Origin: an uncultured Candidatus Saccharibacteria bacterium
GTDB taxonomy: Bacteria; Patescibacteriota; Minisyncoccia; CAIUEV01; JAHKAQ01
Direction of reading: 5' to 3'
Length of the DNA: 64,000 bases
NCBI GenBank assembly: GCA_964598205.1
Contig: CAZRBB010000001.1
Location: 156,199-220,198 of the forward strand
Shown here: piece by piece, positions 10,919 to 64,000 of the stretch
Position numbering within the stretch: position 1 is the stretch's first letter
Layout: every line of letters begins with the position of its first letter
Made by a program: the position numbers and the translations under genes
The notes under the pieces: generated by a model
Databases searched by the model: none
Told to the model about the DNA's origin: nothing
What the model saw: the letters and a program-made list of their open reading frames with translations, nothing else

Positions 10919-12457
10919 ATGTTTTGGAGAAATTTTTTTATTATAGCCAACTCGGCTTTTTTAGTCGGTCTTCTGAGTTGTTTTTTAATTGGCGGGGAAT
11001 TAGGTTTAAAAAAAGAAACTCTTTTTCTTTGGGCTGTTCTTTTGGTTTTTGTTTTTCTTTTTTTTAAAAAAAGAAAAAAAGTAAGAGTCATTATTTTTTT
11101 CTTGTTCTTTTTTGTAGTAGGTTTTAGTCGCTTGTTTTGGGCGGAATCTTTTTTTAATCAAGGCGAATTACTGAATTTTAACAATCAGGAAGTTATTGGT
11201 TTTGGTTCCCTAGGAGAATGCCAAAGAAAAGCTCCAGGAATGGAAGAATGTTTTCTTTCTGATCTGGAAATAAACAAAATTGGTCAAAAAGAAAACATTG
11301 ACCTGGGGAGAAACAAACATTTATTGGTTCTTTTTTACAACAGAGAAAAAGAAATCGGCGAAGATGAATTTTTTAGAGTGGGTTTTCGTGGGCAGTTGGT
11401 GATTCCAGAGGATTTTGGTCGCTCTCTTTCTGGTGCCGAGCGAACCAGTTTATTCAAAAGACAAGCAGTAGGTATTCTAAAAAATCATCGTTTTGATTTT
11501 TTATATCCCGAAAAAAAAGAATTCAGCCTTAATCATTTCTTTTCAATCCTAAGAGAGAAGGTTTTTAATTCTTCTCGCCAATTTTGGGAAGATGATAATT
11601 TAGGATTGGCCTTGGCTTTTTTAACTGGAGACAAAAGCCAGCTTTCCTTGGAGCTTAAAAAAATAATTAATTGTCTAGGATTAGCTCATTTAATTGCAGT
11701 TTCGGGAATGCAATTTACATCTCTTGGCTTTCTGTTAGAAGCTGGGCTTTTTTTTCTTAATTTTCCTCACAAAGTGCGTTTCTACTTAATAATGGCTGTC
11801 CTTTTATTTTTTCTTCTTTTTATTGGTGCACCAGCCGCTGCCAGCCGTGCTTTTTTAATGGATTTTTTAAATAGATTGGCGGTGCGTTGTGGTAGAAAAA
11901 TTACTTTTTGGGCTTCTTTTCTGTTCTCTGCCAGCCTTCTCTTGTTATTTAATCCTTGGAGTCTATTTTATGATCTGGGATTTTTGTTTTCTTTTTTTGC
12001 TATTTGGGGTTTATATTTTTTTGGCGATTTTTTTAGAATCCAATCTTTACCAACGGCCTTACAAGAAAGTTTGGCTCTTAATTTGGCCGCTCAAACAGCG
12101 ACCGCCCCATTGGCTCTTTTCTATTTTCCTTACTTTTCTCCGTTGAGCGTGGTTGTTAATCTCCTGGTCGGTTGGTTGGCAATTCCCCTGATCGTTCTTT
12201 CTTTTGGCGCTCTTCTTTTAGCTCCTTTATTTCTCCCTTTAGCAGAACTGCTTTCTTCTTGTGCTACCTGTTTAGTTTTTTATTTTGTTTTGATTTTAGA
12301 AAAAATAAAATCAATTTCTTGGTCCTGTCTTTCCCTAGAAAATAACATGTTTTGGGCTGGAGTGTTTTTTGCGGTAGTAGCACTCCTAGCCTTTGGTTTA
12401 AAAATTTTTAATTTAAAAGAAAAAAATGAAAAAGATCGGTTTTTTAGTGTTGGCTAA
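10919..12457 (+). CDS. comEC: ComEC/Rec2 DNA-uptake channel, N-terminal and competence (TM) domains
   Basis: Polytopic membrane protein with GLAHLIAVSGMQFTSLGFLL competence-domain motif. Ends 32 nt after the next ORF begins. Confidence 0.7.
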   Translation: MFWRNFFIIANSAFLVGLLSCFLIGGELGLKKETLFLWAVLLVFVFLFFKKRKKVRVIIFFLFFFVVGFSRLFWAESFFNQGELLNFNNQEVIGFGSLGECQRKAPGMEECFLSDLEINKIGQKENIDLGRNKHLLVLFYNREKEIGEDEFFRVGFRGQLVIPEDFGRSLSGAERTSLFKRQAVGILKNHRFDFLYPEKKEFSLNHFFSILREKVFNSSRQFWEDDNLGLALAFLTGDKSQLSLELKKIINCLGLAHLIAVSGMQFTSLGFLLEAGLFFLNFPHKVRFYLIMAVLLFFLLFIGAPAAASRAFLMDFLNRLAVRCGRKITFWASFLFSASLLLLFNPWSLFYDLGFLFSFFAIWGLYFFGDFFRIQSLPTALQESLALNLAAQTATAPLALFYFPYFSPLSVVVNLLVGWLAIPLIVLSFGALLLAPLFLPLAELLSSCATCLVFYFVLILEKIKSISWSCLSLENNMFWAGVFFAVVALLAFGLKIFNLKEKNEKDRFFSVG

Positions 12458-15417: not shown

Positions 15418-16029
15418 TCACGGCCTACCTTTTTGGTAAGTCGCTCTAAATCTTTCCAGTCGCCGGCAGAATTTTTTCTGCTGCTCTTTTTGGCTAAAAA
15501 GTAACGGCTGAAAGGGGTAGGTGGAACGGCCCATCCGCTTTACATCGGTCAGGACTGGTCGCCACTCTTGAGGGGAAATTTTGCGAACTAGAATATTGTT
15601 CCCCCGATAAAAAACATCCAGTAAAAACAATTGCCGCACCAAAAGGATCTCCACGATTTTATTAACATGGATCCAAAAAGCAACATTAGAGACACTGCCC
15701 ATTTCTCCTACTGTCTGAGAATAGGCACCGTCATAATCGCGTGGTCGCTCCATTATTAATAAATCTTCTTTCATCTGGAGATTTCTAGGAAAATAATCAT
15801 GAAGCTCTTTAGGTAGGCTTTTAAAAATCTTGTATTCCCATTGGTTGAAATCGCAAATTCCAAATTTTAACCGAGTATAGAGAGTTGATGAAAAGTAAAT
15901 GTTAATCTTTCCCCAATAACTCTTAGTTATTTTTTTCTTAAGACTTTTAGCACAGAGATTAGTATTTAATACTTCCCAGCATTCTCTGTAGCCGCCCTCG
16001 CCAATTTTTTCCCCAATATTTAAAGCCAT
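15418..16029 (-). CDS. Atypical protein-kinase-like fold protein (YrbL/PhoP-network-like)
   Basis: Gly-rich loop IGEGGYRECW, a following AK Lys, a D-x4-N catalytic-loop-like DVFYRGNN and a TDVK motif. Confidence 0.35.
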   Translation of the reverse strand: MALNIGEKIGEGGYRECWEVLNTNLCAKSLKKKITKSYWGKINIYFSSTLYTRLKFGICDFNQWEYKIFKSLPKELHDYFPRNLQMKEDLLIMERPRDYDGAYSQTVGEMGSVSNVAFWIHVNKIVEILLVRQLFLLDVFYRGNNILVRKISPQEWRPVLTDVKRMGRSTYPFQPLLFSQKEQQKKFCRRLERFRATYQKGRP

Positions 16030-16213
16030 TTTACCTTCCTCCGATTTAAGTAGACTTGGCTGTTTTGTTGTAAAATGATAAGGAGCTAGCGAACGGGTAA
16101 TTCTAATCCAGCTATAAAAAAAAGAGAAGAGGAGATTCTTAAATATTCAGATTAGATCACGCTTTTAATGTTATAATCGATCAAATAAGGTTCGCTAATT
16201 TGGTCTAAAAAAA

Positions 16214-16603: not shown

Positions 16604-17221
16604 TTATTTCTTTCCAATCTTAAATCTTGGCTTTCTTAAAACAAAAAATAAACTAACCGCCGAAAGCGCCCCCAAGGTGTCGGCTAGCATGTCTTTTTGA
16701 GCGTCCCAAATATCACCCTGACTGCCTAGATAGGCAATTCCTGCTTCTGGATTAGCCACTGCCGCGTAAATCCATTCAATTAATTCATAGGTCATAGCAA
16801 CGGTAGCAATTACAAAAACCGGATAAGTAAAAAGCAAAAAACGATTGCCAACTAATCTTCCTCGCCAAATCCATTCAGCAATTAAGAAAGCATAAAAACC
16901 CACAGAAAAATGGGCCAGTCGGTCAAAATGATTCCGGCTAAAACCAAAAAAATCAGTTATCCAGCTAAAGGGCACCAAGGCAAAGGTATAATGACCGCCA
17001 ATGGTATGGAGATAAATTAAAACGCTCGCCAAAATATAAGCCGTGTTAGAAAATCTAATTCCTTTTAAATAAAAACCAATAATCACTGCCAATATAATCC
17101 AAACAGTCAGGTTTTCTACAAACCAAGTTGGTCGATCAATGGGATTAAAAGCTAAAATAGTAAACAAAAACAAATAGCCAAGGAGCAAATAAATTGGCAA
17201 CTTTTCTTTTGGTTTTTCCAT
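16604..17221 (-). CDS. Integral membrane protein, possibly YjdF/DUF2238 family
   Basis: 5-6 TM helices. Assignment by weak pattern resemblance only. Confidence 0.4.
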   Translation of the reverse strand: MEKPKEKLPIYLLLGYLFLFTILAFNPIDRPTWFVENLTVWIILAVIIGFYLKGIRFSNTAYILASVLIYLHTIGGHYTFALVPFSWITDFFGFSRNHFDRLAHFSVGFYAFLIAEWIWRGRLVGNRFLLFTYPVFVIATVAMTYELIEWIYAAVANPEAGIAYLGSQGDIWDAQKDMLADTLGALSAVSLFFVLRKPRFKIGKK

Positions 17222-19461: not shown

Positions 19462-19552
19462 AAGAAATATTCAACAGATTTAATCTAGCACTATAAAAAT
19501 TAATCGATAAGCATTTAAGAGGAATATCTCGTGTTTTTTAAAGCCAATGTTT

Positions 19553-19675
19553 TTTAAGGAGGCCCCTTGTTCTCTCCTACTAAAGTTTAAGCTTTTTAGG
19601 CAAAAGAGAAAAAGAACAAGGTGGAGCGAGGCCCGGTCGAGCGCGAGCGTACTCCGAAAAAAATATTGGCTTTAA
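19553..19675. repeat. GC-rich palindromic intergenic repeat, family 'GGAGGCYCCTTGTTC...GAACAAGGYGGAGCGAG...CGAGCGTACTCCGAAAAA' (copy A)
   Basis: ~80% identical over ~115 nt to 22268..22376. Contains internal inverted repeats. The 69-aa minus-strand ORF here is a translation artefact. Confidence 0.7.
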
Positions 19676-19757
19676 AAAAGAAACATAGATTTTTAAAAGA
19701 AAAAGCCGAGCGTCTCTTAGAGAGACAATTTGAATAGTTATTGGCCAGTTTCCAAAT

Positions 19758-19831
19758 GCGCGCCCGAGAGGATTTGAACCTCTGATCTCTGGCTTCGGAG
19801 GCCAACGCTCTATCCAGCTGAGCTACGGGCG
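19758..19831 (-). tRNA. tRNA-Arg (anticodon CCG)
   Basis: Reverse complement GCGCCCGTAGCTCAGCTGGATAGAGCG-TTGGC-CTCCGAA-GCCAG...GGTTCAAATCCTCTCGGGCGCG gives a cloverleaf with anticodon loop CTCCGAA. Confidence 0.85.
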
Positions 19832-19922
19832 CAATTGATTATTGTAATCCCTAATCCTAATAAACTGCCATCTATTTTTACCGCTATTTTTTGTTTTTGC
19901 CTAGCTGTTTTAGAAATCAACA

Positions 19923-20040
19923 GGACTTCTCCATTTGGTGTAGTTCAAGGCAAAACCGAGTAAGCGAGCGACGCGTAATTATGTTACGAAGAGCGAGCGA
20001 CGGAGGTTTTAACGAAGAAATGCACCAAATGGAGAAGTCC
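19923..20040 (+). repeat. Structured repeat element copy 1: 18-bp perfect terminal inverted repeats enclosing a conserved 81-nt GC-rich core
   Basis: ggacttctccatttggtg (19923-19940) is the exact reverse complement of caccaaatggagaagtcc (20023-20040). The core is identical to 21515-21596. Overlaps the rlmN stop and its last ~10 codons. Confidence 0.8.
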
Positions 20041-21037
20041 TATTTCCCGCTAATTGACCACAAGCCGCATTAATACTAGTTCCGCGGCTTTTCCGTACAA
20101 CTACCTCTATCTGCAACTTTTCTAATTCTTTCCTAAAAGCCATCACTGTTTCCTTGGAAGCTGGCTTAAAATCACCGACTGGGTTGCCACTTAAAAGATT
20201 GACCATAAACAAGCCACCCAAGCCCTTTTTTAAAAGTCTCCCCAATTCTTGGGCATCGGCAGGGGAGTCGTTTATTCCCAAAAACAAGGCGTATTCAATC
20301 ATTATTTTACGACGCCTGATTTTTAAATAATCGCGCAAAGCTCCTAGAACCTCTCTTGTCGGATTAGTTATTTCTACCGGCATATATCTTTGTCTTTCCG
20401 CACTATTAGAAAAATGCAGGGAGAAAGCTAAATTTACCTGCCAGTCTTCTTGGGTAAAGGCGCGAATTCCTTCTGTAATACCGGCAGTAGAAACGGAAAT
20501 TTTCCTAGCACCAATATTCAAACCCTCTGGATCATTAATTGCTAGAATCGCTTTTTTTACTTCTTCATAATTCAAAAACGGTTCGCCCATTCCCATAAAA
20601 ACCACGCTCGTTATTTTTTGGTTCTCCTTTTTTAATTCGCGCGCCCAAAAAATAAGTTGCAAAAGAATTTCCCAATTAGTTAGGTTTCTTTTGAATCCGG
20701 CCTGACCAGTAGCACAAAAAGTGCAAGCCAATTGGCAACCAGCCGCCACCGAAACACAAACCGAATTGTTGCCTTCACTGCCTTTAATTAAAACTGTTTC
20801 TACTCGTACTCCGTCAAAGGTTAAGACCGCTTTTTGAGTCTGGTTATCCGTATCCGCTTTTTTTTCAACATCAATACTCAATGGCAGATCTTTTCCTAAT
20901 TCTTCTTTTAGTTCCTTGGGCAATACGGAAACTTGTTCCCAAGAATCAAAAAGGGAAACAAAAATAGCGCGCTTAATCTGTGCCACACGGAAGCGGGGAA
21001 GTCGGCTTAAAATATTAACTAGCTTTTCTTGGTACAT
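20009..21037 (-). CDS. rlmN: 23S rRNA (adenine2503-C2)-methyltransferase, radical SAM
   Basis: CQLACTFCATGQ radical-SAM CxxxCxxC, GMGEP, and C-terminal AACGQL motif. 342 aa. Confidence 0.9.
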   Translation of the reverse strand: MYQEKLVNILSRLPRFRVAQIKRAIFVSLFDSWEQVSVLPKELKEELGKDLPLSIDVEKKADTDNQTQKAVLTFDGVRVETVLIKGSEGNNSVCVSVAAGCQLACTFCATGQAGFKRNLTNWEILLQLIFWARELKKENQKITSVVFMGMGEPFLNYEEVKKAILAINDPEGLNIGARKISVSTAGITEGIRAFTQEDWQVNLAFSLHFSNSAERQRYMPVEITNPTREVLGALRDYLKIRRRKIMIEYALFLGINDSPADAQELGRLLKKGLGGLFMVNLLSGNPVGDFKPASKETVMAFRKELEKLQIEVVVRKSRGTSINAACGQLAGNRTSPFGAFLR

Positions 21038-21122
21038 TTTTTAAAAATCAATCAAACAATCAACCTCACCGCAAATCAGAGCTCGGCCTTGCTCTAATAA
21101 ATTCGTGTCGTGTAATTTTAGC

Positions 21123-21458
21123 TTAGGTTAAACGGTAAAGTAGAGAGATAGAAACAACGGCCAGGAATAGCCCCAAAATCTCTATTGGTAAAAGTTGCTC
21201 TTTAAAGTAAAAAACGCTGATTAAGGCAGAAGAAATTATAAAAGTGAGAGTAAAAATAATTCCAGCGTTTAAGAATTCCATTTTTTTAAAAACAAAGAAC
21301 CAACCAAAAACTGAGAAAAAGTAAATTAAACCGGCCACTCCCAGAAAGATCGGTACGGAAAAAACTTGTTTTAACGCCGCTTTCTTTATTAAGAGGTCCG
21401 CAATAACAATCAAGAAGCTAAAAGATAAAATGACCGGTAGGATACTAAATTTTCCCAT
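21123..21458 (-). CDS. Small 4-TM membrane protein (DMT/EamA-like half-transporter?)
   Basis: 111 aa with four hydrophobic helices. Confidence 0.4.
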   Translation of the reverse strand: MGKFSILPVILSFSFLIVIADLLIKKAALKQVFSVPIFLGVAGLIYFFSVFGWFFVFKKMEFLNAGIIFTLTFIISSALISVFYFKEQLLPIEILGLFLAVVSISLLYRLT

Positions 21459-21496
21459 GGCGATTTTTTACTTTTTATGGAACTGTTTGGCTGGGA

Positions 21497-21613
21497 CTTT
21501 GTGTATTTGAATGCAGTTCAAGGCAAAACCGAGTAAGCGAGCGACGCGTAATTATGTTACGAAGAGCGAGCGACGGAGGTTTTAACGAAGAAATGCATTC
21601 AAATACACAAAGT
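21497..21613 (+). repeat. Structured repeat element copy 2: 19-bp perfect terminal inverted repeats enclosing the same 81-nt core as copy 1
   Basis: ctttgtgtatttgaatgca (21497-21515) is the reverse complement of tgcattcaaatacacaaag (21595-21613). Sits immediately 3' of the clpP stop (21618-21620). Confidence 0.8.
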
Positions 21614-21617
21614 TCAT

Positions 21618-22193
21618 TTATTTAATAATTTTATCTATTACGCCATACTTCTTGGCTTCTTCCGCGCTCATGTAGAAATCACGATCAGTGTCTTTTTCTA
21701 ACTGTAATATTTTTTGACCGGTAGTTTGCGCTAAAATTTTATTTAATTTTTCTTTGGTTTTTAAAATGTGCCTAGCAGAAATTTCTACATCAGAAGCTTG
21801 ACCTTCGGCACCACCCATTACCTGATGAAGCAGGACTTCTGAATTAGGAAGAGCCAGTCTTTTTCCTTTGCAACCAGCAGAAAGCAGTACCGCCGCCATG
21901 CTAGCAGCAATACCCACGCAAATTGTGGATACATCACATTTTACATAATTCATGGTATCAAAAATTGCCAAACCAGCAGTAACGCTTCCGCCAGGAGAAT
22001 TAATGTAAAGCTTAATATCTTGTTCCTTGTTTTGGCTTTCCAAGAAAAGAAGTTGGGCAATAATAGTATTGGCAGTAGGGTCGTCAATAGCACCAGAAAG
22101 AAAAACAATTCTTTCTTTTAAGAGGCGAGAATAAATATCGTAAGCTCGCTCTCCGTATTGTGATTTTTCAATAACAGTAGGTATAAGATTCAT
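21618..22193 (-). CDS. clpP: ATP-dependent Clp protease proteolytic subunit
   Basis: [32 protein letters not shown] (catalytic Ser) and HQVMGG (His) motifs. Confidence 0.95.
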
Positions 22194-22267
22194 AAAATTA
22201 AATTAAAATATTATTCGATAAGTTTAGTATATCCTCTTGACTGGCATCATTTCCAAGCAGATGTCTT

Positions 22268-22376
22268 TAGAGGAGGCTCCTTGTTCCCGCCCATTAAGCT
22301 CCAAGCTTTTTAGAGAGAACAAAACAGGAACAAGGCGGAGCGAGACCCGGTCGAGGTCGAGCGTACTCCGAAAAAG
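22268..22376. repeat. GC-rich palindromic intergenic repeat (copy B of the family at 19553..19675)
   Basis: gaggaggctccttgttcccgcc ... ggaacaaggcggagcgagacccggtcgaggtcgagcgtactccgaaaaag. The ORF 22310..22495 is an artefact. Confidence 0.7.
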
Positions 22377-22425
22377 AATATCGTCTTAGGGAAGGCTCTC
22401 TGTGTTAACTTGTGGTCGCATTGCT

Positions 22426-22493
22426 GATTCTTGGGAAGACTCGCGTAGGCAGACTCAGAGCCTTGTCTGCCCAAGCGAGTCTTCCCAAGAATC
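22426..22493. repeat. Nested perfect hairpin immediately 3' of tig
   Basis: 19-bp perfect inverted repeat gattcttgggaagactcgc/gcgagtcttcccaagaatc with an inner 7-bp inverted repeat ggcagac/gtctgcc. Confidence 0.7.
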
Positions 22494-22501
22494 AAGCGCT
22501 T

Positions 22502-26165: not shown

Positions 26166-26231
26166 CTTGAGTTTAATGGGAAAGGGGGTGACTGTCAATA
26201 AAGCTAGGAATTTTTTAATAAAAATTGAAAA

Positions 26232-26289
26232 ATAACCCAATAACTATTTTAAACAGAATTGAGTTGCTTCTGTTTAAAATAGTTATTGG
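26232..26289. repeat. 23-bp perfect inverted repeat (hairpin/operator-like) just 3' of the ArsP-like gene
   Basis: cccaataactattttaaacagaa - ttgagttgc - ttctgtttaaaatagttattggg. Confidence 0.7.
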
Positions 26290-26318
26290 GTTATTTCCTC
26301 TTCTACATAAAAATGCTC

Positions 26319-30613: not shown

Positions 30614-30866
30614 CTATTTTTTTTAATTTTGACTCATTTTCTCACAAATTTTAAGATTTGTCTTTTATTTAATCCCAGGAGATAAATTTTTAATTACGAA
30701 TTTTGAGTTTTGATTAAAATTCTAATTTTGAATTTTAAAACAATTTAGAATTTTGAGTTTCCAATTTTATTCAAAATTAAAAACTCAAAATTAAAAATTA
30801 AGGGTAGCGTTTTCAATTCTGATTGGATTCGCTACAATTAAAAAATAACAGTAAGTATTCAAAATC

Positions 30867-32280: not shown

Positions 32281-33060
32281 ATGACAGCAATAGATACAAA
32301 ATACTTTAAAGAATATAGAGAGAAACTTGGCTTTACTAATCAGTGCGAAGTAAAAGCATTTTGGGCTGCAAAAGATATTACCCCCACGGTTGATTATGCT
32401 TATATCAACTTACTAAATAAAAGATTGTTCGAAATTGTTGAGAAAATAAACAATCTGGTTGTTGATGAAATTAAGGTTGAAAATCTAAATGGTTTTTGTG
32501 TTGAAAACATAAAATCAGTTTTTAAAAAATTAAAAACCCACAACATTATTTCGAAACTAAACAATCAGGGGAGAAGACCCGAGGAAGTCTATTTTTCATG
32601 GATGAGAGGCTTTATAATCTCATCCTATTTCTTAAGTGCTTTAAGCAGGGTCTTTGAGGTCAATATTGAAAATATTGAATTGATTGGTGATGATGATTTG
32701 ATAAATATTGAAACTTTCAAAAGAACACCAAAGGCAGATTTACAAATCAATTTAAGAAATGGTGAGAAAGTTAGGATTGAAGTTCAGTCTGGATTTCAAG
32801 GAATAAACGACATTAAACAGCACAAGGTTTTAGAAGCTAAAAGAATAAAAAGAGAAAAAAGTGTTTCTTCATTAGTAATTCATTTCGACTTATTTAATGG
32901 CCAAGTTTCTTTTATTAAAATAGATGAGATTGAAGATGACAGTATAAATTGGATAACAAGACAACAAATGGAGGGACAAACTGTATTTAACATAGATCAA
33001 AACTATTTTGTTTGGAAATTAACTGAAAATCCTCCTAAGTTTACAGATCTATCTTTCTAA
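32281..33060 (+). CDS. Hypothetical protein, probable type II restriction endonuclease partner of the downstream C5-methyltransferase
   Basis: 259-aa ORF with no recognisable motif. It ends 3 nt before the methyltransferase start and has the same orientation and local AT-richness. The REase call is by position only. Confidence 0.4.
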   Translation: MTAIDTKYFKEYREKLGFTNQCEVKAFWAAKDITPTVDYAYINLLNKRLFEIVEKINNLVVDEIKVENLNGFCVENIKSVFKKLKTHNIISKLNNQGRRPEEVYFSWMRGFIISSYFLSALSRVFEVNIENIELIGDDDLINIETFKRTPKADLQINLRNGEKVRIEVQSGFQGINDIKQHKVLEAKRIKREKSVSSLVIHFDLFNGQVSFIKIDEIEDDSINWITRQQMEGQTVFNIDQNYFVWKLTENPPKFTDLSF

Positions 33061-33063
33061 ATC

Positions 33064-34188
33064 ATGGGAATAGTTAAAAAAATCAAAATAATAGATTTAT
33101 TTGCGGGTGTTGGAGGGTTAAGCTATGGATTCGCCCATGATAATAATTTCAAAATTGTTACTGCAAATGAAATTTTGCCCAATATGGCGAAAGCTTACAA
33201 GTTAAACCACCCTACCGTAAAAGTTTATTGCAAGGATATTAAAGAATTCGGTATTAATGATTTAGAACGGGATCTTAATATTAAAAAAGGTAATATTGAT
33301 CTAGTTATTGGCGGTCCTCCTTGTCAGGCATATTCGACAGTAGGAAAGAGATTAATTGATGATCCAAAAGGCAGATTATTCCAAGAATATTATAGAATTT
33401 TAAAAGAAATAGAACCTAAAGTTTTTCTTTTTGAAAATGTAAAAGGTCTTTTATCTATGCAAGGAGGTAAATTATTAAAGACGATCATTTCATTATTTGA
33501 ATCATTAAAATACAAAGTTGTTTATAGAGTTCTAAACTCAGCAGATTATGGGGTTCCGCAAATCAGGGAGAGAGTTATTGTAATAGGGACAAAATTAAAT
33601 TCAAAGTTTGATTATCCAGAACCGACTCATTACAATTCAGAAAATGGACAAACGGCTTTGACCCAAGAATTACTACCATATCTAACATTATCAGATGCAA
33701 TAAGCGATTTACCTTTTATTAAAAGTGGAGAAGAAAGTTTTAATTATGCGGATGAACCAAGAAATGAATTTCAAAAATTAATGAGAAATAATTCTCCTAA
33801 AAAATTAATGGATCATAACGCTCCAAACAATAATAAAAATTTGGTAAAAATTATGGAAAGTTTACCTGACGGTGGGACTCCTGAGGATTTGCCAGAAAAA
33901 CTAAGACCCAAAAGCGGTTTTGCCAATACTTATTGTAGATTATGGTGGAACAGACCAAGTACAACTATTACAAGAAACTTAAGCACTCCTTCTTCATCGA
34001 GATGTATTCATCCAAAAGCACCAAGACCATTGACCACAAGAGAAGGAGCGAGAATACAATGTTTTCCTGATAATTATTTCTTTTATGGTTCAAGGAGCGA
34101 TAAAAATTTACAAATTGGAAATGCCGTACCTACGCTTCTGTCAGTTGCATTAAAAGAATCTATTAGAAAACATTTTTTAGGAAAATAA
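33064..34188 (+). CDS. dcm: DNA (cytosine-5)-methyltransferase
   Basis: Motif I LFAGVGGLSYGF, motif IV GGPPCQAYS, motif VI ENVKGL, motif VIII QIRERVIVIG, motif X GNAVP. Confidence 0.9.
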   Translation: MGIVKKIKIIDLFAGVGGLSYGFAHDNNFKIVTANEILPNMAKAYKLNHPTVKVYCKDIKEFGINDLERDLNIKKGNIDLVIGGPPCQAYSTVGKRLIDDPKGRLFQEYYRILKEIEPKVFLFENVKGLLSMQGGKLLKTIISLFESLKYKVVYRVLNSADYGVPQIRERVIVIGTKLNSKFDYPEPTHYNSENGQTALTQELLPYLTLSDAISDLPFIKSGEESFNYADEPRNEFQKLMRNNSPKKLMDHNAPNNNKNLVKIMESLPDGGTPEDLPEKLRPKSGFANTYCRLWWNRPSTTITRNLSTPSSSRCIHPKAPRPLTTREGARIQCFPDNYFFYGSRSDKNLQIGNAVPTLLSVALKESIRKHFLGK

Positions 34189-34399: not shown

Positions 34400-36622
34400 T
34401 CAACTATTATCCGGAGTTCTTTTTTCTAAATCTACGCTTAAAAGTTGAGAGGTGCCGTCTTTTCTTAAGGTAACTCCATAAAGTAAGCGGACTTCTTTCA
34501 TTATTTCTCGGTTGTGAGTGATTACAATAAATTGAGAATGGCGGGCCATATTTTTTACCACTTTGGTAAAGTTGGCAGAATTGGTTTCGTCCAAGGAAGC
34601 GTCTACTTCGTCTAATAAAACAAAAGGAGGCGGGTTGCTGCTAATAATTGCAAATAAAAGCGCCAAAGAAGTTAATGTTTTTTCGCCACCAGAAAGCATG
34701 CTGGTGCTTTTGATTCTTTTTCTAGGAAGACTCATTTTTATTTCTATTCCTTGAGGCATATTTTGTTCTTCGGTTGAATATTCTGTTTTTTCCGTTTCTT
34801 CTTTTTCTTCCAAAACTAAAACAAGTTCGGCCTGCCCACCTCCAAAAATAATTTCAAAATATTTCTGGAATTTTCCATTGACCTTTTCTAAGGTTAAAGA
34901 AAAACGGGTATTAATCTCCTTGTCTAATTCTTTGATCATTTTTCTGAGCGTTTTTTCTGTTTCTTTAATGTCTTTTGTTTCTTCCTTTAAAAATATAAAT
35001 CGTTCTTTTGTTTCTTGGTACTCTTTTAATACTTCTTCTCCAATGGAATCACAAACCTCTAGCTGTCTTTTAAGCATTTCTAGTTGTGAATCGGCGACTA
35101 GAATCTCTTTTCTTTCTAGCTCTTCTTCCTTTTTTAGATCCAAAAAATCTGGCAGCTTTCCTAAAAGTCGCTGTGCTTTTTCGTTTTGCCGTTCTTCTGT
35201 CATTGCTAAGCGGGAAAATTCTATTTTTAACGAATTGATTCGGTCCTTGATCGTCTCTTTGAAACGATTTCTTTGTTCCGCTTCTTCGGCTAATTGATAA
35301 AACCGTCTCTTTTTTTCTGTTTCTTTCTTATCCAAAAAAGCAATCTCGCTTCTAATCGCCACATCCTTACTGCTCAAAACACTTATTTCTTTTTCTTGAT
35401 TTTTTATTTCTAAAACTTCTTTTTCCAATGCTTTTTTAAGTTCAATTACTTTTTCTTCTCCGCCAGTTCGGATAACACCTTTTTGCAAGGCAGATTTTAA
35501 ATTCAGGATTTCTGTTTTAGTTTTTTCCAAGATCTCTTTAATAGAGGAATCTTTTTTCTCCCAAAGGGTGATTTTATCTAAAATTGTTTCTAGCTTTTGT
35601 TCCACAAAGGGAAGATCCACCTTCTTTACCAAGAGCGATTCTTCTAGCTTTATTTTTTCTTTAATAATTTCTATTCGGCCATCACTAATAGCGCGTTGTC
35701 TTTCGGATTCGTTTTTTTGGATCCTTATTTTTTCTAATTGTTTTTCCAATTCTTCTGTTTTTGGTTCGGTGCAAGTACTTTCTTTAGCGGTCGCTTCTAG
35801 CTCTTGGTTTATTTGAGTAGTTTCTTGATTTTTTTGATCTAGAATTTTCTGCTCCTTTTCTAGCTTTAAAGAAATAGCTTCTTTTTTATCTTGGTGTTCT
35901 TTTTTTAGTGTTCCAAAATAGCGCCTAGCCAATTCGTTAAAAGCCGATTGTAACGCTTTCTCTTCGGTTTTTTTTTCGGCGGTTGCCTCCAAGCTTTCTA
36001 CTCGGGGTTTTATTTCTAAAAGAGAGGCTTCTGTTTTGGCCAAGTTAAAAAGTGTTTCTTCTAGATTTTTTCTTGAGTCTTCCTTTTTTATTTCCAAATG
36101 TTTAACGCAGGCGGCTTCTTCCAAAATTTTTCTTCTTTCCAATGGGGAAGCGGCCAACAATCGGTCGGCCATTCCTTGATTCACAATGGAATAGCTTTCC
36201 CTGCCAATACCGGCTTCTCCTAAAAGACTAACGATTTCTTTTAGGGAGGCGCGACTGTTATTTAGAAAATATTCATTTTCACCGCTTCTATAGATTTTTC
36301 TAGAAATAGTGATTTCGGAAAATTCTACCGGAATTTTTTTTCCGCTGTTGTCAAAAAAAAGCGTTACTCTGGCAGCAGAAAGAGGTTTTTTAAGTGGGCT
36401 ACCGGCAAAAATAACATCTAAGTTTTTTTTACCGCGAAAACTTTTCTTACTTCCTCCGCCTAGCCCCCATTTAATAGCGTCGGCAATATTGCTTTTGCCG
36501 GAACCATTTGGCCCTACAATGGCCGTTATTTCTGGGTTTCCTTCCAAGGAATCGGGAAAAACAAGAGTTGTTTTGTGGTAGAAAGACTTAAAACCGGCGA
36601 GCTCTATTTTCTTTAAGCGCAT
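34400..36622 (-). CDS. smc: SMC-family chromosome condensation ATPase, unusually short (740 aa)
   Basis: N-terminal MRLKKIELAGFKSF...IVGPNGSGKSNIADAIKWGLG...DVIFAG, long coiled coil, C-terminal LSGGEKTLTSLALLFAI ... LLDEVDASLD signature/Walker B motifs. Confidence 0.8.
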   Translation of the reverse strand: MRLKKIELAGFKSFYHKTTLVFPDSLEGNPEITAIVGPNGSGKSNIADAIKWGLGGGSKKSFRGKKNLDVIFAGSPLKKPLSAARVTLFFDNSGKKIPVEFSEITISRKIYRSGENEYFLNNSRASLKEIVSLLGEAGIGRESYSIVNQGMADRLLAASPLERRKILEEAACVKHLEIKKEDSRKNLEETLFNLAKTEASLLEIKPRVESLEATAEKKTEEKALQSAFNELARRYFGTLKKEHQDKKEAISLKLEKEQKILDQKNQETTQINQELEATAKESTCTEPKTEELEKQLEKIRIQKNESERQRAISDGRIEIIKEKIKLEESLLVKKVDLPFVEQKLETILDKITLWEKKDSSIKEILEKTKTEILNLKSALQKGVIRTGGEEKVIELKKALEKEVLEIKNQEKEISVLSSKDVAIRSEIAFLDKKETEKKRRFYQLAEEAEQRNRFKETIKDRINSLKIEFSRLAMTEERQNEKAQRLLGKLPDFLDLKKEEELERKEILVADSQLEMLKRQLEVCDSIGEEVLKEYQETKERFIFLKEETKDIKETEKTLRKMIKELDKEINTRFSLTLEKVNGKFQKYFEIIFGGGQAELVLVLEEKEETEKTEYSTEEQNMPQGIEIKMSLPRKRIKSTSMLSGGEKTLTSLALLFAIISSNPPPFVLLDEVDASLDETNSANFTKVVKNMARHSQFIVITHNREIMKEVRLLYGVTLRKDGTSQLLSVDLEKRTPDNS

Positions 36623-36870
36623 TTTAGATTCTTTTTATTTTCTCTTTCGTTTCTTTTTAAACACTTTTGTCTAAGCTGAGCCTAGTTCTTTTTCATTAAC
36701 AGGAACAATCATAGCATATTTAAAAATCAGTCTAAAGTCGGCTAATTACGAATTATGTTCCGTTTTTTCTCGGAAGCAATGTTCCCAGAGGAAGCTTCTT
36801 GTTCCCATGAAAGAGACCAGAGGAGTATCCATTGGGTAGACTAACGAGGAGGCTCCTTATTCCCACGAAA

Positions 36871-36938
36871 GAGAGTAGAGGAGTATCCATTGGGTAGACT
36901 AAGAGCCATGTCTACCCAATGGATACTCCTCTACTCTC
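36871..36938. repeat. 29-bp perfect inverted repeat (10-nt loop) in the smc/response-regulator divergent intergenic region, preceded by two ~57-bp direct repeat units
   Basis: gagagtagaggagtatccattgggtagac (36871-36899) is the reverse complement of 36910-36938. The upstream units at ~36786-36900 share GGAGGCTCCTT(G/A)TTCCC with repeats A and B. Confidence 0.8.
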
Positions 36939-37001
36939 TAAGCCAGACCCTTGACCTAGAAAAATAAAAATGCCAGCTTTACCCGTTAATTATTTTTTTC
37001 T

Positions 37002-37706
37002 ATGAAAATCCTAGTTATTGAAGATCAAAAAGAAAGTGCCAATTATTTAGTTAAAGGGCTAACAGACAACGGCATGGTAGTGGACTGGGAAGAAGACGGG
37101 GAGAAAGGCTTTTGGCGAGCCTGTTATACGCGTTACGATGTTATACTTTGCGATTTTCATCTTCCCAATAAAAATGGTCAAAAGATTTTGGAAGATTTAA
37201 GGGAAAAAAAGAACGAAACCCCCTTTATCATGGTAACGGTGGAGCGGGAAGTGGAAGAAAAAATAAAATCACTAGACATTGGGGCCGACGATTACATCAC
37301 CAAGCCTTTTCCCATTGGAGAGCTCTTGGCAAGGATCAGGGCAGTGTTGCGGCGGAAAATGGGAAAAAGTCCAGAAAAAAAGCTAATCTTAAAAGATATT
37401 TCTTTAGATTTAGAGAATTACAAAGCGGAATATAAAAACAAAAAACTTTCCCTAAGAAGAAAAGAATTCGATCTCCTTTATTGTTTTATGCTTAATCCTG
37501 GCCGGGTTCTTCCCCGAACTCTTTTATTAGAAAAGGTTTGGGATATGAATGCCGATCCCTTTACTAACACGGTAGATGTCCATGTTCAGAGCCTAAGAAG
37601 GAAATTGAAAGACAAAAAAGGGAAAGTTATTAGGACTATTTATGGAAGAGGCTATGAATTTTTATTAAAAAAAGATGACCGAAAGAGTTTTTTCCCAGAG
37701 AATTAA
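37002..37706 (+). CDS. OmpR-family response regulator
   Basis: Receiver domain (MKILVIEDQ..., DVILCDFHLPNKNG, KP motif) plus a winged-helix C-terminus (TVDVHVQSLRRKL...YGRGYEF). Confidence 0.9.
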   Translation: MKILVIEDQKESANYLVKGLTDNGMVVDWEEDGEKGFWRACYTRYDVILCDFHLPNKNGQKILEDLREKKNETPFIMVTVEREVEEKIKSLDIGADDYITKPFPIGELLARIRAVLRRKMGKSPEKKLILKDISLDLENYKAEYKNKKLSLRRKEFDLLYCFMLNPGRVLPRTLLLEKVWDMNADPFTNTVDVHVQSLRRKLKDKKGKVIRTIYGRGYEFLLKKDDRKSFFPEN

Positions 37707-38886
37707 TTTTCTTAAAATTGGCCTTCCTGGTTTCTTAAATTCAAAATGGAATTACTTTTTTGGTTTACAAACGCCAGCCTTAAAAGAGGTGCAATTTAAA
37801 AACAAGCTCTTAGACATCTTTTCGGGAGAGTATCAGCCTTCTCTTGGTTTATCTTCTTTTTTTAATTTGCTCCTTTCTTTCTTAAAAGTAGAAGAATTAT
37901 TTTTTTCTTTAGAGATTCCCAAAAAAGACACGGTTTTGTCTTTTAAAAAAACTAAGCATGGTCAATTAAAAACCGCGGTTCTAAAAAACAGTTCAAAAAA
38001 ACCAACCATTCCTTTTCTTTTCTTTATTTTTCCAAATTCCCAATCTAGGATTGCTTTTTACGCTACAGGGAGAAAGGTTATTGAAAAAAGTAATTTAAGA
38101 TTTATTCAAAAATCACTTACTCCCTTTTCTTTAAAGCTAGAAAACTATCTTTTATGGTTCTATTTAGAACAGGAGATTGTTTTTCAAAAAAAGAAACTTC
38201 CCCAAGATTCACTTTCTAAAAACTCTGCCACCACCTTTCTCCGTTTTAGTCATGAATTAAAAACACCACTCGCCATTGCCAAAAACTTGGTTTGGCAAGA
38301 ATTAGCCAACAGTACCGATTGTTTCTGTGAAAAGATTTCTCTTTCCTTAGAAAAGATAGCTCAATTGGCAGAAGATTTCTCGTTCTTTCTAAAACTCAAT
38401 CATGAACCAGTATTAATCAGTGATTCTTTTAGGCTCAATCTTTCAGAATCTTTAGACGAAATTTTTTGCGACTTGGAACTTTTGGCGGAAGGAAAAAAAA
38501 TAATTTTTAAAAACTATTGTTCCAAAAATATTTTTGTAATGAGTGCTAAAAAGGGAATAGAAAAAGCCTTACGCAATCTAATTTTCAACGCCTTTATTTA
38601 TAATCACTCCGGTGGAGTGGTAGAGGTTTGTTCTTCTTTGAATAAGGGAACTGTGCGCTTGGTTATTTTAGACACAGGAAAAGGCATTGCCCAAAAAGAT
38701 CTAAGCTTTATTTTTGATTTATTTTACCGTTCGCCATTAGCCAAAGAGATTTATCCAGAAGGTAGCGGCTTGGGACTCCCAATAGCTAAAAAAATAATAG
38801 AAAAACACAACGGTACTCTGGCCGCCGAAAGCGAAGAAGGTAATGGTTCAATTTTTGTAATTACTTTACCGGCCTCTTCTAATTAA
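37675..38886 (+). CDS. Sensor histidine kinase (HisKA + HATPase_c)
   Basis: H-box FSHELKTPLAIAKN, N-box LRNLIFNAFIYN, G-box GSGLGLPIAKKIIEKHNG. N-terminus overlaps the response-regulator 3' end, so the true start may lie downstream. Confidence 0.8.
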   Translation: MTERVFSQRINFLKIGLPGFLNSKWNYFFGLQTPALKEVQFKNKLLDIFSGEYQPSLGLSSFFNLLLSFLKVEELFFSLEIPKKDTVLSFKKTKHGQLKTAVLKNSSKKPTIPFLFFIFPNSQSRIAFYATGRKVIEKSNLRFIQKSLTPFSLKLENYLLWFYLEQEIVFQKKKLPQDSLSKNSATTFLRFSHELKTPLAIAKNLVWQELANSTDCFCEKISLSLEKIAQLAEDFSFFLKLNHEPVLISDSFRLNLSESLDEIFCDLELLAEGKKIIFKNYCSKNIFVMSAKKGIEKALRNLIFNAFIYNHSGGVVEVCSSLNKGTVRLVILDTGKGIAQKDLSFIFDLFYRSPLAKEIYPEGSGLGLPIAKKIIEKHNGTLAAESEEGNGSIFVITLPASSN

Positions 38887-38951: not shown

Positions 38952-41273
38952 TTAATTAACTTCAATTATCTTTTCCAAAAAAGCTAAAGGAAGAATTGCT
39001 GGTTTTTCGGCGGCAGCTTGATGATAAATTACAGTAGAAGGAGTAAGTGCTGGAAGAGTATTGGCTTCTATTAAAATTACTTCTTTTGTTTGGAGATTAA
39101 AAAAAAGATCCAAGCGAGCATAACCAGAAATACCCAAGGCCGAAGCCGCTTTTTGGGTAAGGTCTTGAACAATTTTTAAATCACGAGAAGAAAACCATTC
39201 CTCTGGTGGTGGGGTAAAATTAATACCAGTTCCACCTTGAAATTTTTCTTCTAAAGAAAGAATTTTACCAGAGGCGATTGTTTGGCTAGGAGTTAAAGAT
39301 TTTAATTGATTACCTTGGCCCAAAACTCCTACCGAAAGCTCAATCCAGCCATGAATCTTTTTTCGGTGAAGTTTCTTTCCTAAAATAGCAACCGAATCGG
39401 TTAGAATAAATTTTTCGGCTATTGCTTCAGAGCAAAAACTTTTAGGCAACTCTACGGCTGCGGGATGATCCTTGAGTAGCCCACCAGGGATACAGATTTT
39501 ATTGCTAAGAAGATGATCAAGATAAATTTTTAATTCAGCAGCACTGTTGATTTTAGCAACACCAGCAGAACAGCCATCAGACCGTGGTTTTAAGACTAAT
39601 TCTTTTGCATTAAGTTGGCTGGTAATTTTTTTCCAAAGGGCCTGGGAATCATTTTTTCCACCGAGCTTTATTAAGAACTTGGGGAGACTTTTAAGTTTTG
39701 GGTGGTTTAATTCAGTAATAACTCGCCCGGTTTCCCATTTATCCATTCCTAGTTGAGAAGCCTTAGCACCAGATCCATTAAAGGGAACTTTTAATTGAGC
39801 AAGCTCCGACTGAAAAGTACCATCTTCTCCAGTGCCACCATGGAGCGCTAAAAAAATAAAATCAAATTCTTTTGCCAGTTTTTCTAAAGTAGTTTTTTGA
39901 GGTAGAAAAAGTGATTCGCTTTTAAAATCAGCAGGGATGCCAAGTTCCCAAAGAGTCTTTACTCCCATTTCTTGGAATTTCTTTATTTTTTTGCTGTTAG
40001 TTTTGCAAATCAAATAATCGATTTCTTCTACTGTATGGTGTAGAGCAAAAAAATAAGGGATTCGCCAAAACTCTCCTTTTGGTGAAAGAAAAATAGGCTC
40101 CGGCTTAAACTTGGAAGAAGATTTTAATTTAATAAAAACATTAGTTCCCGAAAGAAGCGAGATTTGCCGCTCTGCTGTTTCTCCTCCAAAAATTACCGCT
40201 ACTTTCTTTTTCTTTATAGGCTCTCCCTTCTTTGAACTACCATTTTTAATGGTTCGCTCCGCCGCTCTTTGGGCTAAATAGTTCAAAAGCTCAGCGTGAT
40301 TTAATCCCAAAAAAGCGGCTTGTCTAAAAATAAAACTATTTTGCTCCATGCCGGTAATCGGATTTATGTCGCTAAACCAAATTTTATTATCTTCCAAAAG
40401 CCAGCCATCAAACCGTGCGTAATCTCGTAAGTTAAACAGTGAGAAAATTTTTTTAGCTTCTTCTTGGATTTTTTGAATAACCGAATCGGAAAATCGGGGA
40501 GGAGTAAAAAAATGAATATGATCGCTGGCTAAATATTTTTTTCTAAAACTAAAGAAAGAATCACTTCCCTTTTTAAAACCGATTTCGGTGGGGATAAGCG
40601 GGATTGGTTCTCCGTTTTTATTTTCTAAAATAAGGATTGTAAATTCTTTTCCTGGGCAAAATTTTTCCAAGACGGCTTCGTCCCCATAATTAAAAACATT
40701 CACTAACTTTGACTTTAATTCAGAAGGAGAATCTAAAAACTCTACTCCCAAAGAAGAGCCGGACCGATTGGGTTTTAAAACATAACGACCCTTTTTAATT
40801 TTTGGTAGGACTCCTCCTTTTTTTATTAATTCCGTGCCCCAAGTATAAAAACCGTTTGCTTTTAATTTTTTTTGGGCTAGGTGTTTATCAATAGTTTCCT
40901 GGGCCCCTTTTTCTTTTACACCAACAAAATTTACCTTGGCATTAGTCAGTATCTTTTGGATTTCTCCATCTTCACCAAACTCGCCGTGCATAATTGGCCA
41001 AACCAAGTCTTGAGATCCTAAATATTTTTTAAACTGGGAAGTGGTTAATTTTTGGCCAATCTTTTTGATTTTGAATTCAAAATCAAAAACGGTATTGGAA
41101 TAAAGCTGGAAAGAGGGGATAAGGTAAGGAGTCTTTTGGGAATCAAAATAAACAATAGAAATTAAAAAGTGTTCTTTGTCTAAATTATCTAAAACCGAAC
41201 GAGTAGAATTTAGAGAAATGCTTTTTTCTGGTGATGGCCCTCCACAAAGTAGGGCAGTTTTTATTTTAGGCAT
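38952..41273 (-). CDS. ddl: Fused tandem D-alanine--D-alanine ligase (two complete Ddl-like ATP-grasp modules in one 773-aa protein)
   Basis: Module 1: ALLCGGPSPEKSISL, HGEFGEDGEIQ, KPNRSGSSLGV, ARFDG...INPITG. Module 2: VAVIFGGETAERQISL, HGGTGEDGTFQ, KPRSDGCSAGV, ARLDLFF...EANTLPA. Confidence 0.8.
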   Translation of the reverse strand: MPKIKTALLCGGPSPEKSISLNSTRSVLDNLDKEHFLISIVYFDSQKTPYLIPSFQLYSNTVFDFEFKIKKIGQKLTTSQFKKYLGSQDLVWPIMHGEFGEDGEIQKILTNAKVNFVGVKEKGAQETIDKHLAQKKLKANGFYTWGTELIKKGGVLPKIKKGRYVLKPNRSGSSLGVEFLDSPSELKSKLVNVFNYGDEAVLEKFCPGKEFTILILENKNGEPIPLIPTEIGFKKGSDSFFSFRKKYLASDHIHFFTPPRFSDSVIQKIQEEAKKIFSLFNLRDYARFDGWLLEDNKIWFSDINPITGMEQNSFIFRQAAFLGLNHAELLNYLAQRAAERTIKNGSSKKGEPIKKKKVAVIFGGETAERQISLLSGTNVFIKLKSSSKFKPEPIFLSPKGEFWRIPYFFALHHTVEEIDYLICKTNSKKIKKFQEMGVKTLWELGIPADFKSESLFLPQKTTLEKLAKEFDFIFLALHGGTGEDGTFQSELAQLKVPFNGSGAKASQLGMDKWETGRVITELNHPKLKSLPKFLIKLGGKNDSQALWKKITSQLNAKELVLKPRSDGCSAGVAKINSAAELKIYLDHLLSNKICIPGGLLKDHPAAVELPKSFCSEAIAEKFILTDSVAILGKKLHRKKIHGWIELSVGVLGQGNQLKSLTPSQTIASGKILSLEEKFQGGTGINFTPPPEEWFSSRDLKIVQDLTQKAASALGISGYARLDLFFNLQTKEVILIEANTLPALTPSTVIYHQAAAEKPAILPLAFLEKIIEVN

Positions 41274-52319: not shown

Positions 52320-52392
52320 GTCCCGGTAGCTCAGTGGATAGAGCAACAGCCTTCTAAGCTGTGGGCCGCAGGTTCAAGTCCTGCCCGGGACG
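52320..52392 (+). tRNA. tRNA-Arg (anticodon TCT)
   Basis: GTCCCGG-TA-GCTC-AGTGGATA-GAGC-A-ACAGC-CTTCTAA-GCTGT-GGGCC-GCAGG-TTCAAGT-CCTGC-CCGGGAC-G. Confidence 0.85.
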
Positions 52393-52396
52393 CAAG

Positions 52397-52433
52397 TAAA
52401 AAAAGAATGACCAATTTGGTCATTCTTTTTTTA
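52397..52433 (+). terminator. Rho-independent terminator after tRNA-Arg
   Basis: aagaatgacc-aattt-ggtcattctt hairpin flanked by A-run and T-run (bidirectional-looking). Confidence 0.7.
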
Positions 52434-52444
52434 CTTTTGACTAG

Positions 52445-52720
52445 CGCAGGACTTGAACACGAAGGGGGTCGGGGAAACTGTAGTTTCCCCGTTGGGGGTG
52501 ACAGCGAGTCCCGTTGAAAACGGGACGAGCGCCAGAGGGCGGAAGCCCTATGGAGAGCGAGCAAAGCGAGCGAGTGAAAGTCCTGCCATTAATATCTTGA
52601 ACGGGGATGGGGTCGGGAAACCGGGAGGTTTCCCGTGGCGGAGGAATCGGAACCGATGGGTTCCGAAGCGGAGCGAACCGCAGCGGAGCGGAGGTGAGTG
52701 AGCAGTGAAATTCCTGCCCG
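52445..52720 (+). ncRNA. GC-rich structured tandem element (two ~135-nt units), candidate structured RNA or tRNA-derived repeat; identity unknown
   Basis: Both units run from 'cttgaac' to 'gtgaaa(g/t)tcctgcc'. Each carries two strong hairpins at equivalent positions with different sequences (ggggaaactgtagtttcccc vs gggaaaccgggaggtttccc; cccgttgaaaacggg vs ggaaccgatgggttcc). All six reading frames are open, which is typical of non-coding GC-rich DNA. Confidence 0.4.
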
Positions 52721-63646: not shown

Positions 63647-64000
63647 TTTTTTTAAATAAAAATCATGTTCACTTTTTATAGCACATCTTTATTCAATTAT
63701 GAATTACGAATTTTGAATTTCGAAATAATTTAGAATTTAAAATTCGTAGTTCAATCGAAATTTCTAATTAACCACCAGCATAATTTAAATTCAAGAGGAG
63801 ACGCTCAATTTTTTCCGGCGAAAAATTTCGCTAGAATATTGGAAAAATTTTCGGAACCGAAAATATTTTCAAAGAGCATGCTCAACGGTTAATTCAAAAC
63901 AGACAAAATTTCACCTAGAGTCTTATTGAGGTTGTATTTAGAATTGGTAAATTTTTTTGAAGAAAATGAAATTCATAATAGTGACGAGGGTGAAAATATT

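Follow-up and report, generated by a model that had tools for sequence, protein, structure and literature searches.

A perfect 30-bp palindrome between divergent smc and response-regulator promoters in a Patescibacteria genome is most likely a locally amplified intergenic repeat

The 379-bp spacer that separates smc from a two-component system in a Patescibacteria genome contains a 169-bp, GC-rich cluster of tandem and inverted repeats ending in a perfect palindrome with 30-bp arms. We analysed this cluster in its 64,000-nt context (hereafter, the window; coordinates refer to the window unless another contig is named). In the reading that we favour, to which we assign a probability of roughly 0.6, the cluster is a lineage-specific, MITE- or REP-like palindromic repeat that has been locally amplified between divergent promoters and is probably without a dedicated function. 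Patescibacteria have small, densely packed genomes whose intergenic repeats are, to our knowledge, poorly described; a full-text search of the literature on intergenic repeats of Patescibacteria found no description of such a repeat family.

RESULTS

Architecture of the repeat cluster

The spacer (36623-37001) lies between divergently transcribed genes for a short SMC protein and for an OmpR-type response regulator followed by a histidine kinase, which is the setting that the initial annotation of this DNA had given. Two relatives served for comparison: L088 (a 1.2-Mb ENA contig) and L089 (GCA_034716235.1). The features of the locus are as follows:

34400-36622, minus strand: short SMC, 740 aa, left neighbour
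36708-36736, minus strand: smc promoter-like site TTTAGA-17-TATGAT with TG; −10 block TATGCTA common to L089; outside the element
36771-36787, no strand: partial head copy CGGAAGCAATGTTCCCA, read from the sequence; resembles the head of units 1 and 2 (GAGGAAGCTTCTTGTTCCCA) and opens the cluster
36788-36845, no strand: tandem unit 1, 58 bp; ~32-nt 5′ head module followed by the 3′ module GAGGAGTATCCATTGGGTAGACTAA
36812-36841, no strand: second possible left arm, within unit 1; pairs with the right arm at 93% complementarity across 68 nt
36846-36903, no strand: tandem unit 2, 58 bp; its 3′ part is the left arm of the hairpin
36870-36899, no strand: left arm of the perfect 30-bp inverted repeat, 100% complementary
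36900-36909, no strand: 10-nt loop TAAGAGCCAT; loop and seven closing pairs make up the apex, which is conserved in the hairpin at 22425-22494
36910-36939, no strand: right arm; inverted third copy of the 3′ module of the unit
36946-37001, plus strand: response-regulator-proximal block, CCTTGACC (−35-like), ..TGCCAGCTTTACCCGTTAATTA..; conserved with L089; outside the element
37002-38886, plus strand: OmpR-type response regulator and histidine kinase, right neighbours

A repeat search recovered the inverted repeat as two 30-nt arms (36870-36899 and 36910-36939) that are 100% complementary across a 10-nt gap. The palindrome had been annotated with 29-bp arms; it is perfect and has the 10-nt loop described, and its arms are one pair longer. 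The same search returned a direct repeat (36788-36844 and 36846-36902; 57 nt, 89% identity, spacing 58), and TRF gave a period of 58, 2.0 copies, and a score of 188. The two tandem units of about 57 bp that had been noted upstream of the hairpin are therefore present as 58-bp units, 89% identical over 58 bp. Each consists of a head module, GAGGAGGCTCCTTATTCCCACGAAAGAGAGTA, and the 3′ module GAGGAGTATCCATTGGGTAGACTAA. All six differences between the units fall within the first 31 nt, and the last 26 nt are identical. With the inverted copy in the right arm included, the three 3′ modules are identical, whereas the 5′ head modules differ at 6/31 positions (19%), a pattern of concerted evolution.

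The core of the arm, the 22-mer GAGGAGTATCCATTGGGTAGAC, occurs three times in the 64-kb window (two direct copies and one inverted copy), always within the cluster, against an expectation from shuffles of 0.00 (zero in 100 shuffles). No copy was found in 9 kb of extra sequence of the same genome. The search for further copies of the 29-mer that the initial annotation had proposed likewise returned only the locus at 36771-36939 in the readable part of the host genome (~73 kb), on which copy number and mobility are judged here.

Predicted folds are strong for both nucleic acids, with −85.3 kcal/mol (z = −7.2) for the RNA fold of the stretch and −34.4 kcal/mol (z = −11.6) for the DNA fold of the hairpin. 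The cluster has a GC content of 48%, as compared to 28% and 34% in its flanks and 37% in the whole window; across the elements of the family described below the value is 46-51%, a foreign composition. Open reading frames in the spacer are limited to 21-45 aa and are made of repeat sequence, and leader-peptide and small-ORF readings were rejected on this basis.

A family of palindromic elements in the window

The initial annotation had related the tandem units to a repeat family, A/B, elsewhere in the window, and this kinship holds. The following members were delimited:

19534-19681, no strand: member A, between tRNA-Ser and tRNA-Arg; homologous to B-left; 24-bp outer stem
22250-22384, no strand: member B-left; head motif GAGGAGGCTCCTTGTTCCC at 22270
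22391-22494, no strand: sister element B-right, in the tig-clpP spacer; degenerate head and 30-bp hairpin with matching apex

The head motif (GAGGAGGCTCCTTRTTCCC / GAGGAGGCTCCTTGTTCCC) has four matches in the window (19556, 22270, 36788, and 36846), where 0.01 would be expected. In particular, the head of unit 2, GAGGAGGCTCCTTATTCCC, is identical to the head at 22270 at 18/19 positions. Five family modules align with one another, and member A and B-left share the head and are both enclosed by outer stems. The hairpin apex occurs twice, in the smc-locus cluster and at 22451, within the B-right hairpin (22425-22454 / 22465-22494; 28/30 paired, 10-nt loop). Specifically, the apex is GGCAGAC-TCAGAGCCTT-GTCTGCC in the tig-clpP spacer and GGTAGAC-TAAGAGCCAT-GTCTACC at the smc locus, giving the 24-nt consensus GGYAGAC-TMAGAGCCWT-GTCTRCC. 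Between loci, the head is conserved at 18/19 sites and the apex at 14/17 independent sites, whereas outer stem pairs differ at 13/23. The better conservation of apex and head than of the outer stem hints at a sequence-specific constraint and so, possibly, at function. The tig-clpP spacer is 308 bp in the window but 7, 75, and 43 bp in three relatives, from which it follows that the sister element is also an insertion.

Searches beyond these loci were negative. In 171 kb of sequence (~60 kb of it from relatives), a covariance model built on the head and hairpin recovered the two hairpin loci and nothing else. A scan of metagenome contigs for the apex GGNAGACTNAGAGCCNTGTCTNCC gave one chance match with no stem; this is a weak negative, as the scan did not return the motif-bearing contigs L097 and L098. 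Scans of viral sequence with the apex and with two family cores returned nothing or, at most, eight chance matches with 4-bp stems, and blastn against phages and plasmids gave no matches.

Other palindromic elements are present in the window. Four palindromic elements in 19534-22494 fill successive spacers in one co-directional string of genes (tig, clpP, EamA-like, rlmN, tRNA-Arg, tRNA-Ser), and the remaining ~60 kb of the window contains only one such element. Two elements, at 19919-20044 and 21490-21615, have a common 83-nt core that is 100% identical (19942-20024 = 21515-21597), contains two copies of the direct repeat AGCGAGCGACG around a small hairpin, and is enclosed at the two loci by different, near-perfect 22-bp inverted repeats. 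The last 11 codons and stop codon of rlmN, which come after the conserved ACGQLA motif, are made up of the right arm and core of the element at 19919-20044. For a derivation of hairpin arms from flanking coding sequence, the rlmN 3′ end in this element is not decisive.

An AT-rich, partly palindromic family with AATTTTGAATTT-type units, unrelated to the GC-rich family, occupies three intergenic regions (2704-2800, 30685-30800, and 63690-63763), at least two of which lie between divergent genes. An AT-rich hairpin (26230-26296; perfect 29-bp stem, 9-nt loop) is found 23 nt downstream of an ArsP-type permease gene; a T-rich run follows it on the minus strand, and it looks like an unusually long intrinsic terminator. 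At 52320-52461, a 23-bp hairpin comes after tRNA-Arg(TCT), and beyond it the 3′ end of the tRNA is repeated in inverted orientation (GTTCAAGTCCTGC / GCAGGACTTGAAC). Downstream is an island at 52.7-59.5 kb encoding HTH, DUF2130, Fic, RhuM-Fic, DUF6922, and AbiEii proteins, and the region from 52320 to 59.5 kb may be the remnant of a tRNA-integrated element.

Position between promoter blocks, and absence from relatives

A promoter scan of 36623-37001 found no promoter-like site inside the cluster. The blocks on either side of it are conserved with L089. In the smc promoter, the extended −10 element (TGnTA..AT) is TATGCTATGAT in the window and TATGCTAATAT in L089. The response-regulator-proximal block starts 7 nt past the end of the hairpin and comprises, in both genomes, CCTTGAC, then ..TG(C/G)CA..TT(T/A)ACC(C/T)GTTAA.., then ATG. 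The two blocks are ~237 bp apart in the window and ~39 bp apart in L089, and the 169-bp cluster accounts for most of this difference. Because the cluster lies between the predicted core promoters, it is probably outside both mRNAs, to the extent that these promoter-like motifs mark the starts of transcription.

To judge by the names of its homologues, the host belongs to Patescibacteria, close to Moranbacteria. Identity to the best non-self homologues reaches only 45% for SMC and 48% for trigger factor, and the host is therefore an isolated lineage. A scan of genome contigs with low-complexity SMC coiled-coil peptides returned only distant SMCs from Bacilli. The divergent response-regulator|SMC synteny is kept in L088 and L089, with AT-rich spacers of 298 and 165 bp, respectively. 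Neither spacer contains a long hairpin or GAGGAG repeats, and the conservation check that had been suggested for this locus thus finds the region absent from the orthologous spacers. Together with the uniqueness of the 29-mer, this absence covers half of the refuting condition named in the initial annotation. Presence in one genome and absence at the orthologous intergenic site is the pattern expected of a MITE, and the simplest reading would be an insertion between two back-to-back core promoters, one that the comparison leaves undated because the relatives are very distant (45-48% identity).

The relatives carry palindromic spacer elements of their own, unrelated to the family in the window. 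In L088, a 39-bp perfect outer stem surrounds two inner hairpins between murG and ftsW (1365-1588), and one of these inner hairpins is repeated after smc (12185-12219). In L089, a GC-rich element, TCATTCCCG...CGGGAATGA, follows clpP (16761-17114) and caused a scaffold gap. The presence of such elements in both relatives indicates that insertions of this kind are common in the clade.

In the wider neighbourhood, a 259-aa protein with no family match is encoded directly upstream of a C-5 cytosine methyltransferase, beside tRNA-Met (32281-34188), and the two probably form a restriction-modification pair. In relatives, nusA is next to smc; in the window, this pair, tyrS, an ATPase, and a permease sit between the two genes. 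On the other side, at 38952-41273, a 773-aa protein contains two complete tandem D-Ala-D-Ala ligase units; the same fusion, at 840 aa, is present in L088.

A cruciform or protein-binding role at the DNA level is possible for the hairpin locus. The 26-bp modules would be bound by a protein (the adjacent OmpR-type regulator or another), or the palindrome, extruded as a cruciform by the negative supercoiling that divergent transcription generates, would couple or insulate the two promoters. The complete identity of the three 3′ modules, set against 19% divergence of the intervening modules, is a pattern of sites plus spacers; the element sits exactly between the two divergent promoters; extrusion is favoured by the perfect Watson-Crick pairing and the short loop of the palindrome; and the apex is conserved with the hairpin at 22451. 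We nevertheless consider a regulatory site of this kind unlikely. The relatives lack the element although they have the same response regulator, SMC genes, and promoter blocks, and the proposal of a cruciform-forming operator made in the initial annotation thereby gains no positive support. The conserved GTTAA-type block by the response-regulator start, outside the element, is a better candidate for an autoregulatory box. OmpR-family sites are typically spaced 10-11 bp apart, as compared to 58 bp here. Finally, the sister hairpin is in an operon spacer, not a promoter, and no further copy of the module is present upstream of any gene in 73 kb.

Palindromes probably maintained at the DNA level

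Comparison of the smc-locus hairpin with the tig-clpP hairpin reveals 16/30 invariant pairs and 12/30 in which both partners have changed but still pair; no pair has changed on one side alone, and the other two pairs are unpaired in the sister copy. Across the six long hairpins of the window, which have stems of 22-30 bp, 151/157 pairs are Watson-Crick and 2 are G·T. Stems selected as RNA normally tolerate G·U pairs. The near-absence of G·T pairs, together with the lack of one-sided changes, points to palindromes whose formation and perfect pairing would be due to events at the DNA level, either inverted duplication or arm-to-arm conversion.

Searches for RNA signals were negative. No Rfam family matched at its gathering threshold; the only matches were to generic miRNA-hairpin models and to lysM-TM7, and the latter was rejected, as it scored 24.7 bits where the threshold is 61.5 and had broken or many non-canonical pairs. 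No intrinsic terminator was found in 36623-37001 on either strand, and there is no U/T tract: the sequence following the hairpin is AAGCCAGA on the plus strand and TTCGTGGG on the minus strand, and no gene ends there.

The hairpin could alternatively act as RNA, as a double-stranded substrate of RNase III, an mRNA-stabilising hairpin, or the end of a small RNA. Intergenic hairpins of the Neisseria Correia/NEMIS type and of T7 are RNase III substrates or mRNA-stabilising hairpins, and RNase III needs a stem of ~20-22 bp. All six long stems are at or above this length, the genome encodes RNase III (L094, 3429-4121), the predicted RNA folds are very stable, and four of the hairpins occupy spacers of the co-directional gene string that extends from tig to tRNA-Ser, where transcription is expected. 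However, the smc-locus copy is between predicted core promoters and so probably in neither mRNA, it has no U-tract on either strand and no Rfam match, and a G·U count of 2/157 with no one-sided changes is unlike RNA-selected stems. An RNA-level role is thus attractive for the operon-spacer copies and unlikely for the smc-locus copy, and as an account of the element as a whole we rate it as unlikely too. The regulatory RNA suggested in the initial annotation has no positive support, given the Rfam result and the position of the cluster between the promoters.

Comparison with known repeat classes

The element has much in common with hairpin MITEs such as Neisseria Correia/NEMIS, enterobacterial ERIC, and Rickettsia RPE. 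Like them, it is short, non-coding, palindromic, and intergenic; it is G+C-richer than its surroundings, of foreign composition, lineage-restricted, and absent from the orthologous spacers of relatives; and it would form a long hairpin once transcribed. Unlike MITEs, its copies are mosaic, with head and apex conserved and stems specific to each locus. Indeed, a conserved core or apex within locus-specific stems (unalignable or ~60% alike) is the reverse of a normal MITE.

The likeness to REPs and REPINs lies in the arrangement: two inverted modules of ~25-30 nt with a short spacer form one hairpin (here, 30-nt arms 10 nt apart), clusters mix direct and inverted copies, and the arm contains GTAG (GGGTAGAC). 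In REP-bearing genomes, the near-identical copies number in the tens to hundreds, and REPs flank a RAYT gene (PMC3116915, PMC3337134). The arm here, in contrast, is unique to its locus, and the sister hairpin shares 16/30 pairs with it and has GCAG instead of GTAG; no dispersed near-identical copies were found in the 64-kb window plus 9 kb of the same genome. The element thus resembles both MITEs and REPINs (PMC3116915) and qualifies as neither.

Several findings tell against a mobile repeat. Copies do not share terminal inverted repeats, with 12/30 stem pairs swapped between loci; no target-site duplication is evident, as there is no duplicated flank at 36770/36940; and no transposase or RAYT was found, with no RAYT/Y1 transposase among the scanned ORFs of the window or the precomputed Pfam calls. 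A purely mutational origin, by quasi-palindrome formation or template switching, would fit a perfect Watson-Crick inverted copy of adjacent sequence with a short loop beside a tandem duplication. As a mutational mechanism, it leaves unexplained the sharing of apex and head with a locus 14 kb away. More speculatively, the mosaic elements might be an undescribed mobile cassette, one that targets the tips of palindromes already present or makes inverted duplicates of its target, or RNA cassettes released by RNase III from stems of free sequence; we regard this as doubtful.

Two further candidates were tried. An origin of replication, prompted by the switch in gene orientation and the GC-skew minimum near 30-42 kb, was rejected, as there is no cluster of DnaA boxes: the window has 15 matches to TTATCCACA-like boxes with one mismatch, as compared to 14.65 expected, and the spacer has none; GTATCCATT agrees with the DnaA box TTATCCACA at 6/9 positions; and the GC skew near 30-42 kb follows the gene strand. 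An invertible promoter was rejected because the loop and segment have the same orientation in all assemblies and no recombinase gene is nearby. The uniform loop orientation, with no sign of inversion, also leaves the recombination site suggested earlier without positive support.

Support from independent assemblies

Five assemblies (L001, L002, L098, L099, and L101), which come from different runs or samples, one of them a JGI sample, carry the 379-bp spacer without a single difference, and all of them read through the hairpin into unique sequence on both sides. Four contigs (L003, L004, L005, and L100) end inside the hairpin, and L100 also begins inside the hairpin at 22425-22494. The tips of L003 and L004 have single mismatches in the right arm. 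One further contig, L097 (JGI 3300045131; 16024-16054), matches the window over 21,224 nt save for three substitutions (36890 T>A, 36904 A>T, and 36920 T>A), all of them non-compensatory A/T transversions within 31 nt of the hairpin apex. Unit 1 retains the state of the window at the position matching 36890, and the left-arm change therefore looks derived. The three substitutions are either hairpin-localised errors or the mark of a mutational hot spot. Elsewhere, the first 91 nt of a 130-kb JGI contig (L091, 1-91) are a perfect inverted copy of a segment 1.6 kb inward (1657-1747), which looks like a fold-back artefact at a contig end.

An artefact of this type at the smc locus, a fold-back or a chimeric join at a contig end, is very improbable. 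The several contigs that stop within the hairpin, and the L097 differences confined to it, might be taken to suggest one; however, a 30-bp palindrome is expected to break graph assemblers working with short k, and the five assemblies cross the hairpin at 100% identity with unique flanks on both sides. This exact reproduction in five assemblies means that the locus is not the chimeric join considered in the initial annotation.

The chance that the cluster is a guide-RNA array is negligible. A tandem, partly palindromic repeat in a CPR genome does recall TIGR stem-loop arrays, in which palindromic stems vary (PMC12045711) around interior motifs that are conserved, and which are likewise present in Patescibacteria. 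TIGR-Tas systems are, however, defined by an adjacent Nop-domain Tas, units of ~36 nt, two variable 8-12-nt spacers, and box C/D-like flanks (PMC12045711), whereas here the neighbourhood has no Nop-domain Tas gene, the units number only two and measure 58 nt instead of 36, motifs resembling box C/D are not evident, and the would-be spacers are homologous (89%), not variable. A CRISPR array was rejected for the same homology of the inter-repeat segments, and for having two to three repeats, one inverted, and no neighbouring cas genes.

DISCUSSION

Our results favour a palindromic intergenic repeat that was amplified in place. We propose that a GC-rich, non-coding palindromic repeat would have landed where an insertion could be tolerated, between the smc and response-regulator promoters that stand back to back. 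Its ~58-bp unit (head plus 3′ module) would then have been duplicated in tandem, probably by replication slippage, and a further copy of the 3′ module, this time inverted, would have been added, with template switching or hairpin-primed synthesis as the probable route. The inverted third 3′ module would have created the perfect 30-bp palindrome. The perfect pairing would have been kept at the DNA level, reflecting a recent event or gene conversion between the arms and not selection on RNA. If the cell is affected at all, this is probably incidental; for the neighbouring genes, the effect might, for example, consist of a cruciform absorbing negative supercoiling from divergent transcription, or of altered promoter spacing.

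The hairpin cluster holds up as a real feature, also in statistical terms, and is most likely of an ordinary type, a palindromic repeat of intergenic DNA, found in a host that is unusual. Its unusual aspect is the mosaic conservation, in which head and apex are retained and the outer stem is not, and which may reflect function, patchy gene conversion, or an odd mechanism of insertion. The two elements that have the 83-nt core in common show this pattern more strongly still.

For annotators, the locus implies that a perfect hairpin in a promoter region is not to be taken as a regulatory RNA, and long perfect palindromes of this kind break short-read assemblies. For the biology of the group, it indicates that a small Patescibacteria genome tolerates, and locally amplifies, a 169-bp GC-rich palindromic element between back-to-back promoters. 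If the mosaic pattern, with conserved apex or core and free stems, holds genome-wide, an unusual mode of spreading, or cassettes processed by RNase III, would be possible.
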